Origin: Fidelibacterota bacterium
GTDB lineage: Bacteria > Fidelibacterota > Marinisomatia > Marinisomatales > S15-B10
NCBI GenBank assembly: GCA_046861655.1
Contig: JBHIAI010000001.1
Location: 1 to 64,000 of the forward strand
Length of the DNA stretch: 64,000 nt
Direction of reading: 5' to 3'
Part shown: positions 23,456-37,129 of the stretch, one piece after another
How positions within the stretch are numbered: position 1 is the first letter of the stretch
How the letters are laid out: each line of letters starts with the position of its first letter
The notes under the pieces: generated by a model
Seen by the model: the letters and a program-made list of their open reading frames with translations, nothing else
The model's database searches: none
What the model was told of the DNA's origin: nothing
Made by a program: the position numbers and the translations under genes

Positions 23456-23507
23456 CAAGTGGCTGTCCAATAAATTGGTATGGCCATTGAATCGGAGGAT
23501 CGAAACA

Positions 23508-26500
23508 ATGAACAGTTTCCAAAACTTTATCATTAGAAAACAGTCATATGTTCTCTTAACAGTCTCAGTCCTAACAATGGTGTGCATATCGACCCTGATC
23601 GCAAAAGAGGGTAGGCAGGGACAAATTGAAGGTGTGACACAATCTTCTCTCACTAAGAATAATCCATTTGATCGTGTTGTCAAAGGGCAAGTGGGCGAAG
23701 TTCCTCAGCTCCCGAGCAGATTAGATCTGGACGCAATCGCTAAGGTACGTGAGAAGAGGCAGGCGGCTCATGGGATGAGTGATGGCATCCGCGAGCGAGA
23801 CAACCGGCCCCCCATGTTGGGCAAAAGCAAAACCGTTCCATCTGAACGGCAAACAGATGAGCTGGTTAAGATGAGGAACCCCTTTCGATGGTCTTTTGAC
23901 CGGGAGAGGGAAGAGAACAGATCTTTGTGGCAAACGACAGAACGGCCCCTCGGGGTGTTAGGAACCTTTCCTCCACTTTATTCCAGACGTGATTCCGATC
24001 GGCTTGGTGTGAGTGGTTTCGACGATGTGATTGATGTCAAGGTAAACGGCGTTGACTCGGACACCATCACGCAGGGCAATGACTTTGTGGTGACTGTTAC
24101 GTTTTCTACAGGGAGCTGGGACGGGTTTGGCGTTGGCTCGCCTTCCGTAATTGTGGACGGAAGCACCTACCATATGTGGTACGATGCCAACGACGGCACC
24201 ACTCCCCGTATAGGGCACGCGACCTCGTCCGATGGTGTCGCCTGGACGGAGGATGCTGGCAATCCAGTGCTGGATCTTGGAACTTCTGGATCGTGGGAGG
24301 ATGAAGCTGTCAATCAGCCATCGGTTTTCTTTGATGGTGCTACATACCACATGTGGTATTCGGGAGAAGACGGAAGCACTGGTCGGATCGGCTATGCGAC
24401 CTCATCCGATGGCGTCACCTGGACAAAGTATGCCGCCAATCCAGTTCTTGATGTGGGGACACCTGGAGCCTGGGATAGTTTGTGGGTTGCGGCTCCCATA
24501 GTAGTCTTTGATGGGAGCAGCTACCATATGTGGTACGTTGGCTTCGGCGGAAACAATGGTATTGGTTATGCTACCTCAGATGATGGAATTATCTGGACCA
24601 GATATGCAGGGAATCCGGTTCTCGAGCGTGGAACCTCAGGAGACTTCGATGACGGTTTCCTCTGGAGTCCCGAGGTTGTCTTTGACGGGACGACGTACCA
24701 CATGTGGTATACTGGCATAGATGGCGGCCACTGGGCCGTCGGGTATGCGTCCTCCACGGATGGCGTGACTTGGACAAAACACACAGATGATACTAATGGA
24801 CAGCAAACATGGAACCCTCAGGAGAGCGGAACTACTTCTGGTCTAAGCTCAGTTTATTTCGTTGATGACATGACAGGCTGGGCGGCCGGTGCCGGTGGGA
24901 CAATTCTCCACACTACGAATGGTGGAACCGATTGGGTTGCACAGTCGAGTGGTGCTGGTACTACAATAGATTTATCAATCACCTTTGTGGACGCCTCCAC
25001 CGGCTATGCTGTGGGGTCAGGTGGAATAATCCTCAAAACAACCGATGGCGGAAGTACTTGGATAGAGCAGTCGAGCGGGTCTTCGGAGAATCTCGGGGCA
25101 GTCTCTTTTGTTGATGCTTCCACGGGCTGGGTAGTTGGTTGGAATGGTACAATCCTCAAAACAACCGATGGTGGGAGCAACTGGTCTGCACAGTCCAGCG
25201 GAACCTCAAGCAAATTGTATTCAGTCCACTTTGTCAATTCCACCACTGGCTGGGCGACGGGAGATGGTGGAATAATTCTCAAAACAACCGATGGCGGAAG
25301 CACCTGGATCCAGCAGTCGCAACCCAGCGGGGTCTATTCGCTGTTCGGCGTTTATTTTGTGAACAGCTCCATGGGCTGGGCCGTTAGTGTAGGCGGGAAA
25401 ATTATCTCGACAACCGATGGCGGAAGTAACTGGAGCATTCAGTCAACCGGCCATCCAATCTTATGGTCAGTCCACTTTGTTAATTCCACCACTGGCTGGG
25501 TCGTTGGAGATGGTGGAACAATTCTTAAGACTACTGATGGTGGGGAACAATGGACGAGCCAACTCAGTGGAACCGACCGGTCTTTACGTAGTGTTTTCTT
25601 TACAGACTCCCAAACTGGGACTGCCGTGGGCGATCAAGGGACAATTCTACGCGCCACCACCGTCTTTTCAGTAAGTCCGGTCCTGGACGTGGGAGCACCG
25701 GGAACCTGGGACGAAGAAGGTGTTGGGTTTATGTTTGTACTGCTTAGCGAATCCACCTACCATATGTGGTATACTGGATGGGATAGCGATACATATACAG
25801 GTCACTTAGGCTATGCCACCTCAACAGATGGGGTGACGTGGACCAGACACACCGATAATCCTGTTCTTGATCCCGGAACACGCTCGTCCAGGGAAGCCGA
25901 TCTCACTGTCTGGATCGATATGGATGATGATGGTGTGCTGGATGAGTCAATCGATATTCAGATTGACGAACCAGATCACATCGTGGACAACAGCCCATTT
26001 GATGAGGACCCAACCGAAGGTATCTATCAGTTCACCGTTTCCGATGAAGATGAAGGGGACATCAACCGTGTGGGTAATATGGGGCTGTTCTTCAAGGCAG
26101 AGGATACTGGAGGTTCCGATGACGCCTTCCTTTTTCTGGAGCCTATGGTGTCTAATTATTCCGTTTCCGGAACGATTTCCCCGGCCGTTGAGAATATCGT
26201 GGTAGCAGCGATTCGTCCTATGGCCGACGACGAAGACGTATGGTACACGCTAACGGACGAGACAGGAGGTTACCAGGTTTTCTTGCCTGAAGCGGGGGTA
26301 TACTCCATAATAACGGCAGATTTCCTGGGGGCTACAGGAGGTATGTTCCCCGATAGAGGCTATTACAACGTCTACGTAGACGGTCATCTCACCGGCTATG
26401 ATTTCACCTACATTGCTGCCACCGCCTGGATCGAAGGAACCGTCACGGATGAGAACAGCAATCCCCTTCATGGAATAGAGGTCTTTGCCAGGATTGAGGA

Positions 26501-29375
26501 GGGACAGGACCTACAAAGTTGGATCGAGACCGATGAGTCCGGATACTACACTCTTGGCCTACTGGAGGGAGACTGGGAAGTCGGGTTAGATGGAGCTGAC
26601 CTCATACCGGGTTATATGGTACCGGAAGGAGAGGAGTTCCATATGTCTGAGGGTGCGACCCGCACTGTGAACTTTACCGCTTATTCTACGGACGCCACCA
26701 TAACCGGGACGGTGTTCTTGGATGACGCTCCTGCAGGCGGGGTACAGGCTAGGGCTTGGAGCCCCCTTGGCTCGACCAGAACAGTTTCTACTGCCCATGG
26801 TTTCTACACCCTCTCTGTGGCCAGTGAAGCCGATGGGGAGGGAGGATACGATGTGGGCGTTGCGGAGTGGAGATTGCCTTTTCCCGCCTACGTGGATGAA
26901 TATTACTCAGGAATTATGTCGGGCTCAGCGGGAATAGATTTTCACGTGTACGAGATTCCCTTTGGAGCTATTGAAGGGATAGTCACCGATGAAACCACGG
27001 GGGATCCCATAGAGGGTGTCCGAATCGACTTTTGGCGTTTTGATTACTGGGATGTTTACCGTACCCGGACCGATGAGAACGGCTCTTACCACCAGGATCT
27101 CCCCGTGGGTGACTACCGGATTGAGGTCTTTGCTTTTTGGCTTGGATATATAAATGAAGTCTACAACAACCAGTCTCATCCCGAGGAGGCAAATCCGGTA
27201 TCCGTGGGTGAGGATCAAACCAGCGAGATCAACTTCGACCTTGGACTAGGAGGAGAGATTTCCGGGACAGTGACCGATCCTGAAGGAAGGCCCATCCCTG
27301 GTGTGGGTGTGACTGTCTTGGATTGGGATGAGATAGGCGGATGGCGTTGGTTCCATAGCGGGACCGGCACCGATGGTGACGGGAACTATACTGCCAGGGG
27401 TATTCCTACCGGGGATCAACTGGTATATTCGGAAGCCCGGGGCTTCTTTACGGAGTATCACGATGGGGTGTACGACCAGGAATCAGCCTCCCCGGTCTAT
27501 ATAACAGCCCCCAGCACAACTTCCGGGATTGACTTTGTGTTAGAACAGGACGGTTCTCTCTATCCGCAGAGAGCTGGGAATCTGCACCTTGCCGTCGGTA
27601 ACGATGCCAGGCTGGGCAATGACGGAGTGGTCTATTTCCCATCGGCTGAATGGCCGGAGGAGAGTGGAAATAACTACTTATACTCTGGAGGTCTTTGGAT
27701 TGGGGCGGAATTGGATGATTACCGGAGCGTTAGTACGGCATTCTACGGAACGGAATGGTCTCCCGCAGACGGATTTCATGTTGAACACATCTACTCTGAC
27801 GAAGACGTGTATGTCGAATACCACGATATGGATTACGGCAGAAATCCAAGCCCTCTCGGTCTTGAAGTCAGGCAAGCTTCCTATGCCTGGGAGGGAGAAG
27901 ACTATCTTATCTTTAGATACAAGATCAGGAATACGGATTACCGGGGGGAACTGCGTAATATCATGGTGGGTCTCTTCTTCGATTTTGATATCGCCACCCA
28001 TGCCGGAGATGACTTCTGGCGGGATGACCGTGTAGGTTTTGAAGATGATTTAGGCATTTCTTATATGTACGATAATGATGGGGATGACGGTGCTTCTCCA
28101 GGGTATGTTGGAGTTCACCCCTTAGACCAACCTGTTCATAGCCATTCGTGGTGGGGTTGGGCCACAGGGGATCCGGGGGATGATTGGGATCAATACGAAT
28201 TCATGACACGGGGTTTCATGGGGGATCCAGGCTATGACGATGATTTTCGCATCCTACAGAGCGTGGGCCCCTTCTTCCTGGCTCCTGGGAGTGAAATGGA
28301 GCTCTCCTTTGCCCTCGCCATTGGAGAGGGACTTGATAGTCTAAAGGGAGCAACAGAAAAGGCTCAAGAGAGGTTTGATGAGGTGTTGGCCATGGCCCGT
28401 CCTCCGGGGCTTGCCTCTGTCAAAGACGTTCCCAAGGATCAGGGCCGGCAGGTGAGACTCATCTGGGGTAGTGGGAGTGCCGGGCCTGATGAAACCTTTA
28501 CAAGATACAGTATCTGGCGACACGTGGATGATGAACCGGGCGACCTGTGGGATTTTCTTACCAACGTGCCATACATTGGGTTTGGGGACTATGCTTACGT
28601 GGCACCCACTCTGGTGGATTCTAACATGTACACGGGTCCTGAAGATGCCTTCTGGTCTACCTTCCGGGTGATTGCCCATACAGAGGACAGGCACTTCTTC
28701 TTGGTGTCAGAGCCCATGAGAGGATATTCTTTGGACAATCTGGAGCCAACGGTTCCGGGGGGCTTGATTGCCACCGGAGGCCTGGAGGGCATCAGTTTGA
28801 GCTGGGAACCCAATCCTGAAGAAGACCTGGACTACTATTCCATCTATCGGGGGACGACTTCAGGGTTTGAACCGGACGAACCGTACACGCATACAGTGGA
28901 CACCTTGTTCGTGGATGAGGAAGTGGGAGAGGGTATCACCTACTTCTACGTAATAACGGCAACCGATTTCAACGGCAATGAGAGTGGTTACTCAGATGAG
29001 GTGGGTGGTATTCTGGGAATTGATGAAGGTGCCCGGATTCCCGAGCGCTTCGAGCTTGCTCAGAACTACCCCAACCCCTTCAACCCGGTGACCACTCTTC
29101 GATACGGGCTTCCAGAGCGGTCCCATGTTACCCTTGTGATCTATGATCTGCTGGGCCGACGGGTGAGAACGCTTGTCAGTAGGATAGAGGATCCAGGCTA
29201 TAAATCGGTTCTATGGAACGGCACAGATGGTCTCGGCAGATCCGTGAGTGCCGGCGTCTACATCTATCGGATCCAAGCCGGTGATCCCTGGGCAGGGTCC
29301 CCGCTTTCACAGGGCTCAGCGGGACAGGCGGGACGTGAATTCACGCAGACCCGGAAGATGGTATTGCTGAAATAA
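23508..29375 (+). CDS. Giant secreted multidomain protein: five-blade GH32/GH43-like propeller, YCF48-like propeller, carboxypeptidase-regulatory-like Ig repeats, FN3-like domain, FlgD/secretion tail
   Basis: GGAGG before ATG 23508; 5x YHMWY...G(Y/H)A(T/S)S.DG..W; 6x TT(D/N)GG..W; repeated I(E/S/T)G(T/I)V...T.E.G.Y; QNYPNPFNP...RKMVLLK. Confidence 0.85.
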   Translation: MNSFQNFIIRKQSYVLLTVSVLTMVCISTLIAKEGRQGQIEGVTQSSLTKNNPFDRVVKGQVGEVPQLPSRLDLDAIAKVREKRQAAHGMSDGIRERDNRPPMLGKSKTVPSERQTDELVKMRNPFRWSFDREREENRSLWQTTERPLGVLGTFPPLYSRRDSDRLGVSGFDDVIDVKVNGVDSDTITQGNDFVVTVTFSTGSWDGFGVGSPSVIVDGSTYHMWYDANDGTTPRIGHATSSDGVAWTEDAGNPVLDLGTSGSWEDEAVNQPSVFFDGATYHMWYSGEDGSTGRIGYATSSDGVTWTKYAANPVLDVGTPGAWDSLWVAAPIVVFDGSSYHMWYVGFGGNNGIGYATSDDGIIWTRYAGNPVLERGTSGDFDDGFLWSPEVVFDGTTYHMWYTGIDGGHWAVGYASSTDGVTWTKHTDDTNGQQTWNPQESGTTSGLSSVYFVDDMTGWAAGAGGTILHTTNGGTDWVAQSSGAGTTIDLSITFVDASTGYAVGSGGIILKTTDGGSTWIEQSSGSSENLGAVSFVDASTGWVVGWNGTILKTTDGGSNWSAQSSGTSSKLYSVHFVNSTTGWATGDGGIILKTTDGGSTWIQQSQPSGVYSLFGVYFVNSSMGWAVSVGGKIISTTDGGSNWSIQSTGHPILWSVHFVNSTTGWVVGDGGTILKTTDGGEQWTSQLSGTDRSLRSVFFTDSQTGTAVGDQGTILRATTVFSVSPVLDVGAPGTWDEEGVGFMFVLLSESTYHMWYTGWDSDTYTGHLGYATSTDGVTWTRHTDNPVLDPGTRSSREADLTVWIDMDDDGVLDESIDIQIDEPDHIVDNSPFDEDPTEGIYQFTVSDEDEGDINRVGNMGLFFKAEDTGGSDDAFLFLEPMVSNYSVSGTISPAVENIVVAAIRPMADDEDVWYTLTDETGGYQVFLPEAGVYSIITADFLGATGGMFPDRGYYNVYVDGHLTGYDFTYIAATAWIEGTVTDENSNPLHGIEVFARIEEGQDLQSWIETDESGYYTLGLLEGDWEVGLDGADLIPGYMVPEGEEFHMSEGATRTVNFTAYSTDATITGTVFLDDAPAGGVQARAWSPLGSTRTVSTAHGFYTLSVASEADGEGGYDVGVAEWRLPFPAYVDEYYSGIMSGSAGIDFHVYEIPFGAIEGIVTDETTGDPIEGVRIDFWRFDYWDVYRTRTDENGSYHQDLPVGDYRIEVFAFWLGYINEVYNNQSHPEEANPVSVGEDQTSEINFDLGLGGEISGTVTDPEGRPIPGVGVTVLDWDEIGGWRWFHSGTGTDGDGNYTARGIPTGDQLVYSEARGFFTEYHDGVYDQESASPVYITAPSTTSGIDFVLEQDGSLYPQRAGNLHLAVGNDARLGNDGVVYFPSAEWPEESGNNYLYSGGLWIGAELDDYRSVSTAFYGTEWSPADGFHVEHIYSDEDVYVEYHDMDYGRNPSPLGLEVRQASYAWEGEDYLIFRYKIRNTDYRGELRNIMVGLFFDFDIATHAGDDFWRDDRVGFEDDLGISYMYDNDGDDGASPGYVGVHPLDQPVHSHSWWGWATGDPGDDWDQYEFMTRGFMGDPGYDDDFRILQSVGPFFLAPGSEMELSFALAIGEGLDSLKGATEKAQERFDEVLAMARPPGLASVKDVPKDQGRQVRLIWGSGSAGPDETFTRYSIWRHVDDEPGDLWDFLTNVPYIGFGDYAYVAPTLVDSNMYTGPEDAFWSTFRVIAHTEDRHFFLVSEPMRGYSLDNLEPTVPGGLIATGGLEGISLSWEPNPEEDLDYYSIYRGTTSGFEPDEPYTHTVDTLFVDEEVGEGITYFYVITATDFNGNESGYSDEVGGILGIDEGARIPERFELAQNYPNPFNPVTTLRYGLPERSHVTLVIYDLLGRRVRTLVSRIEDPGYKSVLWNGTDGLGRSVSAGVYIYRIQAGDPWAGSPLSQGSAGQAGREFTQTRKMVLLK

Positions 29376-34781: not shown

Positions 34782-36089
34782 ATGTCATCCATGGATCGAC
34801 GGGAATTCCTGGGGTCGGTGATTAAACCCGCCGCGGTTGTCTGGGCTGCCGCCGTGTTGACTCCTGCGGGGATGAGCCGGGCCCTGGCTGCAGTGTCGGG
34901 GACGCGGCGAAAGGCCAGTGACCTGGCCGGGGATGAAGCCTTCTGGTTTGAGATCCAGCAGGCGTACACCACTGACCGGAGCTTGATAAACTTGAACAAT
35001 GGAGGTGTCAGTCCTTCGCCGGTAGGCGTCCAGGAGGCCATGAAGCGCTATCTGGATTATTCCAACACCGCGCCGGCTTATTCCATGTGGCGGATTCTGG
35101 AACCCCAGCGGGAAACGGTCCGGCGAAGACTGGCCCGGTTCTTTCAATGTGACCCTGAAGAGATTGCTCTTACCCGGAACGCCTCGGAAGGACTGGAAAT
35201 CTGCCAGCTCGGGTTTGACCTTGAAGAAGGGGATGAAGTTCTGACTACCAACCAGGATTATCCCCGGATGATCAACACCTTCAAACAAAGAGAGTGCCGG
35301 GAAGGCATTGTGCTGAAACAGTTTTCCCTCCCCGTTCCCGCCGAGGACGAGAATGAAATCGTTCACCTGTTCGAGTCCCACATCACCTCCGGAACCCGTC
35401 TCATCTTGATGTGCCATATGATCAACATCACTGGACAAATCCTGCCGGTCAAGAAAGTGGTCCGCATGACCAGGAAGAAAGGTATTCCCGTCATCGTGGA
35501 TGGGGCCCACGCCTTTGCCCACTTTCCCTTTTCTGCCCATGATTTGGACTGTGAATACTATGCTACCAGCCTCCACAAGTGGCTGTGTGCCCCTCACGGA
35601 ACGGGCATGCTGTACGTGCGCAAGGACAGGATAGAAGACCTCTGGCCTCTCATGGCGGCCGAGGAATGCGCCAGTGACGATATCCGGAAGTTTGAGGAAA
35701 TCGGGACCCATCCAGCGGCCAATTTCCTGGCCATCGGCGATGCCCTCACCTTCCACCAGGGCATAGGATCTGCCCGGAAACAGGCCCGGTTGATCTACCT
35801 CCGGGACCGGTGGGCGACACGGCTGAAGGAGTACGACCAGGTCCGTTTGCATACGAGTTTGAAACCGGGTAAGGCCTGTGGGATAGCCACCGTACAGATC
35901 GAGGGTATCGACGCCGAGGCGATTACCCAGCATCTGTGGAAGGCATACCGAATCCTTGTGACAACGATCAAGCATCCTGAGTTCGAGGGGGTCCGGGTGA
36001 GTCCGCATGTCTACACCACCCTGGAGGAAATCGACCGTTTCGCGGAGGCGATGGAACAGATCATTCGACAGGGAATCCCCGAGTCATGA
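34782..36089 (+). CDS. Tat-exported class V PLP enzyme (CefD/EgtE-like lyase or epimerase)
   Basis: DRREFL twin-arginine signal ending ALA; LNNGG, RNASEG, VDGAH, SLHKWL. Confidence 0.88.
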   Translation: MSSMDRREFLGSVIKPAAVVWAAAVLTPAGMSRALAAVSGTRRKASDLAGDEAFWFEIQQAYTTDRSLINLNNGGVSPSPVGVQEAMKRYLDYSNTAPAYSMWRILEPQRETVRRRLARFFQCDPEEIALTRNASEGLEICQLGFDLEEGDEVLTTNQDYPRMINTFKQRECREGIVLKQFSLPVPAEDENEIVHLFESHITSGTRLILMCHMINITGQILPVKKVVRMTRKKGIPVIVDGAHAFAHFPFSAHDLDCEYYATSLHKWLCAPHGTGMLYVRKDRIEDLWPLMAAEECASDDIRKFEEIGTHPAANFLAIGDALTFHQGIGSARKQARLIYLRDRWATRLKEYDQVRLHTSLKPGKACGIATVQIEGIDAEAITQHLWKAYRILVTTIKHPEFEGVRVSPHVYTTLEEIDRFAEAMEQIIRQGIPES

Positions 36090-36535
36090 CCTGGGCCTGG
36101 GCAGTCATAAGTCTTTCCCTCCTGGTCATGGCCTTTGCCAAACAGGAGCCGGGGCGTAGAACGATTTCCACCCCCAGGGCCCCGGCGGCCATGGGCCCCT
36201 ATTCCCAGGCGGTTCAGGTGGGAAACACCCTGTATCTGGCGGGCCAGATCGGACTGGACCCTTCCACGGGTGAACTGGTTGAAGGAGGTATCGAAGCCGA
36301 AACCCGCCAGGCTCTCGAAAACCTTGCGGCAATCCTCGATGAGGCAGGGTTTACGTTCGTGGATGTGGTGCAGGTCCAGGTTTTCCTGGCCGACTTGGAG
36401 GACTACGGGGCCATGAACCGGGTGTATGGAACTTATTTTGCCGCCGCTCCGCCCGCCAGGGCTGTGGTGGAAGTCTCGAAAATCCCCAGGAATGCCCAGG
36501 TGGAAATTACGATGATCGCCGTGTCCGGCCGGTGA
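36086..36535 (+). CDS. ridA: RidA/YjgF family enamine deaminase with N-terminal signal peptide
   Basis: GPYSQAV, LAGQIG, PPARA (catalytic Arg), VEI; hydrophobic leader ending AFA. Confidence 0.88.
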   Translation: MTWAWAVISLSLLVMAFAKQEPGRRTISTPRAPAAMGPYSQAVQVGNTLYLAGQIGLDPSTGELVEGGIEAETRQALENLAAILDEAGFTFVDVVQVQVFLADLEDYGAMNRVYGTYFAAAPPARAVVEVSKIPRNAQVEITMIAVSGR

Positions 36536-36574
36536 GAACGGGTTGACCCTGGGGAGAAAAGAGGAACGGACGTC

Positions 36575-37129
36575 ATGGCCTACATAAGGGTGATTTCCCC
36601 CGAAGGGGCAGAGGGAACGGTGAAGGTGGAGTACGAGAAGGGGATTCGCCGGGCGGGCCGGGTGTCTAACATCTTGAAAATCATGAGCCTGAGCCCTGAG
36701 TCTCTGAAGACCTCTATGCGGTTTTATTTGGCCGTTATGAAGGGGCCGTCAGCGTTGTCGCGGGCCCAGAGGGAACTGCTGGCGACGGTAGTTTCTCATT
36801 CCAACGACTGCTTCTACTGACTTGAATCCCATGGCGACGACTTCCGGGCTGAAGTCAAGGATGATCGGCTGGCCGAACACGTGAAGAGGGACTGGAGGAC
36901 GGCTCCCCTTAGTGAGGCGGACCGGGCCCTGTGCCGGTGGGCGGTGAAACTGACTCTAAGCCCGTCCCAGATGACGGGGGAAGATGTGAACGGCCTTCGC
37001 AAGGCCGGATTCTCCGATGAAGCCATCAGCGACGCTGCCCAGGTGGTGGGGTATTTCAACTACATCAACCGGATCGCCGATGGGCTCGGAGTTGATCCCG
37101 AACCGGAGATGGTGAAGAAAAAGCGCTGA
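36575..37129 (+). CDS. AhpD/CMD-like peroxidase, probable selenoprotein (UGA 36818-36820 = Sec, C-F-Y-U motif)
   Basis: The two track ORFs 36575..36820 and 36881..37129 are in one frame, separated only by TGA. Read-through gives a 184-aa AhpD-like protein: LSRAQRELLATVVS..NDCFYU..SH...YFNYINRIADGLG. Confidence 0.85.
36821..36862 (+). promoter_or_regulatory. Candidate bacterial SECIS hairpin
   Basis: GACTTC(36839-44)-CGGGCT-GAAGTC(36851-56) perfect stem with a G-rich loop about 25 nt after UGA; possible lower stem ATCC/GGAT. Confidence 0.65.

Follow-up and report, generated by a model that had tools for sequence, protein, structure and literature searches.

A single in-frame TGA divides two short open reading frames in the 64,000-nt stretch of DNA analysed here (hereafter the window), raising the question of whether it ends a small gene or is read through as selenocysteine (Sec) within a larger one. 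Calling ORFs with translation table 11 returns two pieces, 36575-36820 (81 aa) and 36881-37129 (82 aa), offset by 306 nt; translating the forward strand from 36575 to 37129 places both in one frame of 81 codons, the TGA, 102 further codons and a terminal TGA, as a sequence-only reading of the locus had described. The internal TGA is codon 82, in the context N77-D-C79-F-Y81-TGA-L-E-S-H86. We conclude, at a probability of about 0.96, that the UGA at 36818-36820 is decoded as Sec and that the locus holds one intact gene, not two. The earlier proposal of one 184-aa Sec gene which standard callers split is supported by the frame, the family score of the read-through product, the conservation of column 82 and the Sec machinery of the source genome (G000). 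The features discussed are collected in Table 1; promoter and terminator scans of the surroundings stayed near chance (7 vs 3.6 and 9 vs 9.0).

Table 1. Coordinates of the predicted selenoprotein gene, its sequence elements and further probable Sec codons of the source genome. Positions without a contig name are those of the window.
Feature	Position	Strand	Basis
AhpD-like (TIGR01926, peroxidase-related) gene, 184 aa, one in-frame TGA = predicted Sec	36575..37129	+	Translation, profile matches
In-frame TGA, codon 82, predicted Sec at second CxxC position	36818..36820	+	Translation, homologue columns, Cys in 4 solved homologues
GAGGA, ribosome-binding-site-like motif, 9 nt 5' of ATG	36561..36565	+	Sequence
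Glu67, counterpart of PA0269 Glu36, predicted proton relay	36773..36775	+	Invariant in 20/20 rows; spacing as given for PA0269 in PMC3141380
Cys79, first CxxU residue	36809..36811	+	Invariant in 20/20 rows
His86, counterpart of PA0269 His55, predicted proton relay	36830..36832	+	Invariant in 20/20 rows; PMC3141380, as for Glu67
Predicted SECIS upper hairpin GACTTC-CGGGCT-GAAGTC, loop C-G-G, codons Asp89-Val94	36839..36856	+	Folding, homologue conservation
Probable Sec codon, Rdx/SelW CxxU	G000:C182:2723		
Probable Sec codon, HdrA-FlpD fusion CxxU	G000:C51:607		
Probable Sec codon, DsrE UxxC	G000:C155:5037		
Probable Sec codon, DUF3179 UxxC	G000:C46:83936		
Probable Sec codon, SelD	G000:C13:14605		
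Large LVIVD-repeat protein, thioredoxin-fold UxxC, secretion-system C-terminal tail (L054)	G000:C181:3-1547		
Large LVIVD-repeat protein, thioredoxin-fold UxxC, secretion-system C-terminal tail (L055)	G000:C123:207-2237		

Profile searches treat the read-through product as a single protein. It scores 152.4 bits against TIGR01926 (cut-off 81.8) over residues 4-178, spanning the TGA, and 45.5 bits against PF02627, to which the N-terminal half alone gives 26.6 bits and the C-terminal half alone gives no match. Two related models score it far below their cut-offs and leave it outside their membership: TIGR00777, the mycobacterial-type AhpD (16.5 bits vs 191.95), and NF041238, AhpD_rel_CFYUT (71.2 bits vs 175). 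With the latter it has in common a related fold and the C-F-Y-U motif, but the NF041238 model runs to 357 positions. Ten solved sequences match the read-through protein; four of the alignments (6K40, 2OYO, 3C1L and 2PFX) are full-length and nearly gap-free, share an N-x-C-x-Y-C-x3-H motif and put Cys at position 82, and these Cys-type proteins, together with 2PRR (E 1e-33 to 2e-18), differ from the window gene in having Cys where it has TGA/Sec. The first of them, 6K40, is titled AhpD and is presumably Deinococcus DR1765. E67, C79, Y81, U82 and H86 are all invariant among 20 aligned rows. In the published account of PA0269 and mycobacterial AhpD, the proton relay comprises E36, C48, Y50, C51 and H55 (PA0269 numbering; PMC3141380); the spacing E-x11-C-x-Y/H-C-x3-H is common to these proteins and the window protein, whose sequence spacing matches the whole relay set of Glu, Cys, Tyr/His, Cys(Sec) and His.

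Searching 41 related genomes gave matches in 21 (27 rows, 26 distinct genes), and codon 82 in those 26 is TGA in 20, the window gene included, TGC or TGT in five and uncovered in one. A scan of GTDB contigs, which overlaps the first set so that the counts are not additive, yielded 70 loci at 42-78% identity, with TGA in 64, Cys in six and nothing else, a count from which five further, distant paralogues with Cys, encoded on the other strand, are excluded. Carriers of the TGA form belong to Fidelibacterota/Marinimicrobia, Verrucomicrobiota, Planctomycetota, Acidobacteriota and KSB1; the six Cys forms of the GTDB set all belong to one clade of Pseudomonadota (Woeseiaceae, Lysobacterales). Alignment therefore bears out the claim that the TGA occupies the second Cys of the AhpD CxxC motif: the relatives carry only TGA or Cys in that column, and the four solved homologues carry Cys. 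The nearest named homologue, from Fidelibacterota, is 78% identical, has the same neighbour genes and is the sister of the window gene in a tree of 81 rows, which makes Fidelibacterota the probable phylum of the host. Because that tree is midpoint-rooted and its long branches meet in the Cys group, we draw from it no direction of change between Cys and Sec.

Two features of the homologue set are recorded here for their own sake. Loci L022 and L025, from genomes of different genera (G006 and G009), have identical upstream sequence and first ~50 residues and then diverge, possibly through a chimeric contig or recombination. Several relatives (L031, L032, L041-L045) also hold a second, paralogous AhpD-like CxxU gene at ~45% identity; five relatives carry both copies, and the paralogous copy was not found in G000.

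Were the TGA a true stop, the locus would be a pseudogene or a pair of small genes (81 and 82 aa) making a split enzyme. Both halves are indeed callable ORFs, TGA is the commonest stop in G000 (321 of 657 long ORFs), and the hairpin described below is not the lowest-energy fold here. A true stop would not, however, be expected to persist at 42-78% identity over several phyla and be swapped for Cys only, nor would the 20 codons between the called ORFs, His86 among them, be expected to stay conserved in frame, as they do in the 20-row alignment. Furthermore, the GTG at 36881 that would start the downstream half has no motif similar to GAGGA 5' of it, and termination at codon 82 would cost the protein its second redox residue. 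We regard a true stop as very improbable.

Still less credible, at a level close to dismissal, is that a true TGC or TGT was turned into TGA in sequencing or assembly. What speaks for it is the nature of the source, a 198-contig assembly of metagenome type (92.8% complete). In one hydrothermal-vent study, nevertheless, contigs of three public runs span the TGA with 0 differences, one of these runs perhaps being the source itself, and a fourth, diverged contig, with 24 differences over 167 nt, leaves both the TGA and the stem untouched. Since three runs agree and the diverged contig keeps the TGA, we take it not to be an assembly error, and the same codon stands in 64 of the 70 homologous loci. 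The contigs inspected for TGC or TGT at codon 82 show TGA, and the public runs listed as carrying the sequence include no RNA dataset.

The inference that the host uses selenocysteine finds support in the genome at large, with one component incompletely assembled. Profile searches recover selB (334 bits, above cut-off), selD (382 bits, with an in-frame TGA of its own) and tRNA-Sec (selC; 62.9 bits, anticodon TCA), the last typed as such by both ARAGORN and Rfam. Profile searches and tblastn found no full-length selA in the G000 assembly; what is present is a 17-codon tail at a contig edge, C100:2-55, whose residues align with the C-terminus of selA from a same-genus genome and which shares an ATGA overlap with the start of selB, as in that genome. 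Of six selA loci from relatives, five have selB immediately after selA and four have an MFS gene on the upstream side. As an MFS gene in G000 is cut by the end of contig C89 and the selA tail opens contig C100, on which selB starts ~50 nt in, selA most likely lies in the assembly gap between C89 and C100. In searches of 41 genomes, selA and selB each exceed their cut-offs in 37. Across the homologue set, selA was matched in 27 of 30 genomes with a TGA-type homologue (three lacking a match) and in 0 of 6 with a Cys-type one, a comparison that covers 36 of the 70 loci (most of the non-Fidelibacterota ones), in genomes whose completeness is not given; because the six Cys-type genomes are one clade, they do not amount to six independent tests.

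These data also bear on whether the UGA might be read as some other amino acid, either through genome-wide reassignment to Trp or Gly or as Cys delivered via SelB by a tRNA-Cys with a UCA anticodon. Insertion of Cys at UGA by a special tRNA has been described in some bacteria, and this, with the failure of a full selA to assemble, is what speaks for such a reading. On the other side, TGA terminates 321 of the 657 long ORFs, so that the genetic code is not globally changed; the sole TCA-anticodon tRNA found in G000 is the tRNA-Sec; and the selA tail sits in its usual place, with selD present and selA found in the same-genus genome. We consider insertion of another amino acid as improbable as a true stop, and retain Sec as the decoding.

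Decoding by the bacterial pathway calls for a hairpin just past the UGA. The perfect GACTTC/GAAGTC stem with a CGGGCT loop that had been pointed out 19 nt downstream is present as described, with arms at 36839-44 and 36851-56, the stem opening on the 19th base after the TGA and the loop lying 24 nt after it. The bacterial SECIS model, as set out in PMC13188914, has a loop of 3-9 nt at 16-37 nt from the UGA, a stem of 4-16 bp, a G within the first two loop positions (N-G-[G/U]) and an energy of -7.5 kcal/mol or below. The candidate agrees in geometry (6-nt loop with C-G-G, 6 bp, spacing 24) and falls somewhat short of the threshold in energy, at -5.4 kcal/mol for the stem alone and -6.9 to -7.1 with flanks; a 60-nt window with the hairpin forced and a lower stem reaches -11.1 kcal/mol. 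As for chance, 113 of 5000 random TGA triplets of G000 (2.3%) precede a Watson-Crick stem of 6 bp or more whose loop has a G at 16-37 nt; a hairpin of equal or greater stability follows 10% of random TGAs, and 59% satisfy the geometric rules at their loosest. Moreover, when longer regions are folded, the hairpin does not form part of the lowest-energy structure (z-scores -0.5 to +1.3; pair probability 0.02), losing to other folds in most windows with at least 50 nt after the UGA, and it dominates (p of at least 0.95) only in folds that leave out at least the first 9 nt and stop by +45. Among the 50 homologues with a full stem, 30 have inner pairs with p>0.5. By itself, the hairpin is only suggestive; with such a chance level and a different lowest-energy fold, the case for its reality rests on conservation.

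That conservation is considerable. Among 11 orthologues, only four of 66 degenerate columns with invariant residues use a single codon, and two of those four make up the 5' arm (GAC, TTC); for the Val that closes the stem, GTC and GTT alone occur. The loop Arg codon is CGG in 47 and CGT in 16 of 63 TGA loci, all of them fitting N-G-[G/U]; by contrast, all six codons turn up at five other conserved Arg columns. All six stem pairs are intact in 50 of those 63 loci. In all 17 cases where Leu CTC has replaced Phe TTC, Glu on the other arm is encoded by GAG, which turns a U-A into a C-G pair, in genes whose overall share of GAG among Glu codons is 25-88%. Over 64 sequences, 89.6% of stem cells are paired (slid controls 24-59%) and 22 cells have changed on both sides (0/500 shuffles), although this compensation comes mainly from the one Phe-to-Leu lineage and represents few independent events. 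The 11 closest orthologues show no double-sided change and a pair count not above the shuffle control. Judged by these codon and pairing patterns, the hairpin is under selection across the homologues.

Not every locus keeps this particular stem. Each of the 13 TGA loci without it has another model-compatible hairpin, at spacing 17 in six and at 24-25 in seven, and the paralogous AhpD-like group has a different stem with its loop near +19. The six (L101, L103, L106, L107, L109 and L119; five Acidobacteriota and one KSB1) have lost the +24 hairpin and bear a 7-8 bp, GGA-loop hairpin at spacing 17, which looks like a change of SECIS register inside a single orthologous group. A separate oddity concerns L046 (G016:C20, minus strand, ~1470-1510), in which a 40-nt GC-rich, near-palindromic insertion of the CCTGCC...GGCAGG type interrupts the SECIS loop and shifts the frame just past the TGA, with both stem arms still recognisable; no copy of this insertion was found in G000. 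Taken together, the alignment offers an unusually clean comparative case of an in-frame SECIS.

The window gene is not the only probable selenoprotein gene of its genome. A dicodon-score screen for in-frame TGAs in G000 listed 254 of 18,585 candidates and missed both the window gene and selD, so the number of selenoproteins it yields is a lower bound. Fourteen hand-picked candidates were tested with Pfam. Six are probable selenoprotein genes, additional to the window gene and selD: Rdx/SelW CxxU, two LVIVD-thioredoxin-fold UxxC, HdrA-like CxxU, DsrE UxxC and DUF3179 UxxC, the last with no good hairpin found. The remaining eight were rejected as gene junctions or for want of a family spanning the TGA. 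The two LVIVD proteins, which are possibly secreted selenoproteins, share a hairpin, TCCGGA-GTT-TTCGGA, 17 nt past the TGA. A short GC-rich in-frame insert also seems to be present in the window at 29279-29338, within the secretion-signal-like C-terminal tail of a 1966-aa ORF (23475-29375); a 44-nt copy, 91% identical, lies on contig C27, and a similar extra segment occurs in the tail of the thioredoxin-fold selenoprotein on C181. It is possibly a small repeat that inserts into coding sequence.

What the enzyme does is less firmly indicated than how it is encoded. By analogy with its Cys relatives, the 184-aa CxxU protein is predicted to be a thiol/selenol oxidoreductase that reduces peroxides or disulfides. 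Following the established bacterial pathway (PMC13188914), SelB-GTP-Sec-tRNA(UCA) would bind the C-G-G loop 24 nt past the UGA and insert Sec82. Extrapolating from the Cys homologues, Glu67, Cys79, Tyr81, Sec82 and His86 would form an AhpD proton-relay site in which Sec82 would be the residue that attacks the oxidant and Cys79 the one that resolves the product to a selenenyl-sulfide, to be recycled by a cellular dithiol. Work on mycobacterial AhpD provides the division into attacking and resolving roles, with lipoamide as donor. The CxxU pair would in this way cycle between selenol/thiol and selenenyl-sulfide, reducing peroxides or the disulfide of a partner. Given Sec decoding, an antioxidant role is probable, if well short of assured, and the label 'peroxidase' is carried over to the Sec form from its Cys homologues. 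Among these, a Deinococcus AhpD-like knockout is H2O2-sensitive and both Cys residues are required, according to a review (PMC8945050), and PA0269 is credited in PMC3141380 with a 'weak ability to reduce H2O2'; in Cys homologues of the close type, peroxidase activity is accordingly weak or indirect. Among the top literature matches listed, none was a biochemical study of an AhpD-like protein containing Sec.

Gene context might suggest a different substrate. The gene ends a same-strand run of an M14 peptidase, a class-V PLP enzyme, RidA and then the selenoprotein gene; the class-V PLP enzyme and RidA lie directly upstream, at 34782-36535. The former has its best match, far below cut-off, to a PvdN-like model, does not reach the cut-offs for Sec lyases or desulfurases, and begins with what we take to be a twin-arginine-like sequence. 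Perhaps, then, Sec is decoded in a reductase serving amino-acid and peptide uptake and catabolism, acting on disulfides, persulfides or selenocompounds. In keeping with this, an APC amino-acid permease neighbours 23 of the 70 loci and M14 and M20 peptidases 5/70 each, two other genomes share the apparent operon with the class-V PLP enzyme and RidA, and TIGR01926 is named only 'peroxidase-related'. The 23 permease loci are close kin, however, and the neighbourhood varies by lineage (LysM/YkuD at 11/70, cupin at 7/70, DoxX adjoining the Cys forms); a conserved operon, sought in 96 loci with flanks of 1.5-3 kb, was not found; and the Deinococcus knockout points to peroxide. We find an uptake-linked function doubtful, and favour the antioxidant role. 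The immediate neighbours include no ahpC, and a peroxiredoxin-like ORF lies ~4.6 kb downstream, such an ORF being near the gene in 3 of the 96 loci.

A bolder version, which we rate lower again and offer as speculation, is that the whole Sec clade (Fidelibacterota, Planctomycetota, Verrucomicrobiota, Acidobacteriota and KSB1) may be a dedicated selenol reductase for sulfur and selenium compounds from amino-acid and peptide uptake and not a general peroxide scavenger, and that its SECIS may serve as a natural dual-coding experiment, with Phe/Leu, Asp/Asn and Val/Ile changing in step with the stem and hairpin spacing moving from 24 to 17 in Acidobacteriota and KSB1.

Set against known systems, the gene belongs with the AhpD-like selenoproteins (COG2128/TIGR01926, 'AhpD-like 1'), sharing with them the HMM family, CxxU, a single Sec and a hairpin of SECIS geometry and differing in host lineage only; from mycobacterial AhpD it is further set apart by the lack of an adjoining ahpC. 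AhpD-like CxxU proteins were counted as 27 sequences in the Sargasso Sea in 2005 (PMC1088965), 299 in GOS (PMC2398784) and two in bacterial genomes (PMC1794560), and the family ranks among the commonest selenoproteins of ocean metagenomes (PMC1088965, PMC2398784). A table in a 2026 review lists 'AhpD-like protein, TIGR01926, CxxU' (PMC13188914), and BSepDB includes an AhpD-like selenoprotein family (PMC13326102). The words Marinimicrobia and Marinisomat- are absent from the main text of PMC13188914 and PMC13326102; published supplements or BSepDB entries may list this lineage already.

The find is a real member of a selenoprotein family in print since 2005, and opens no new question. Its value lies first in annotation, as standard callers break up this gene, like its counterparts in numerous uncultured lineages, and the active site is lost in the process. 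It also puts Sec use on record, with some eight probable selenoprotein genes, for a genome that is probably from Marinimicrobia and whose DNA is present in metagenomes from hydrothermal vents.
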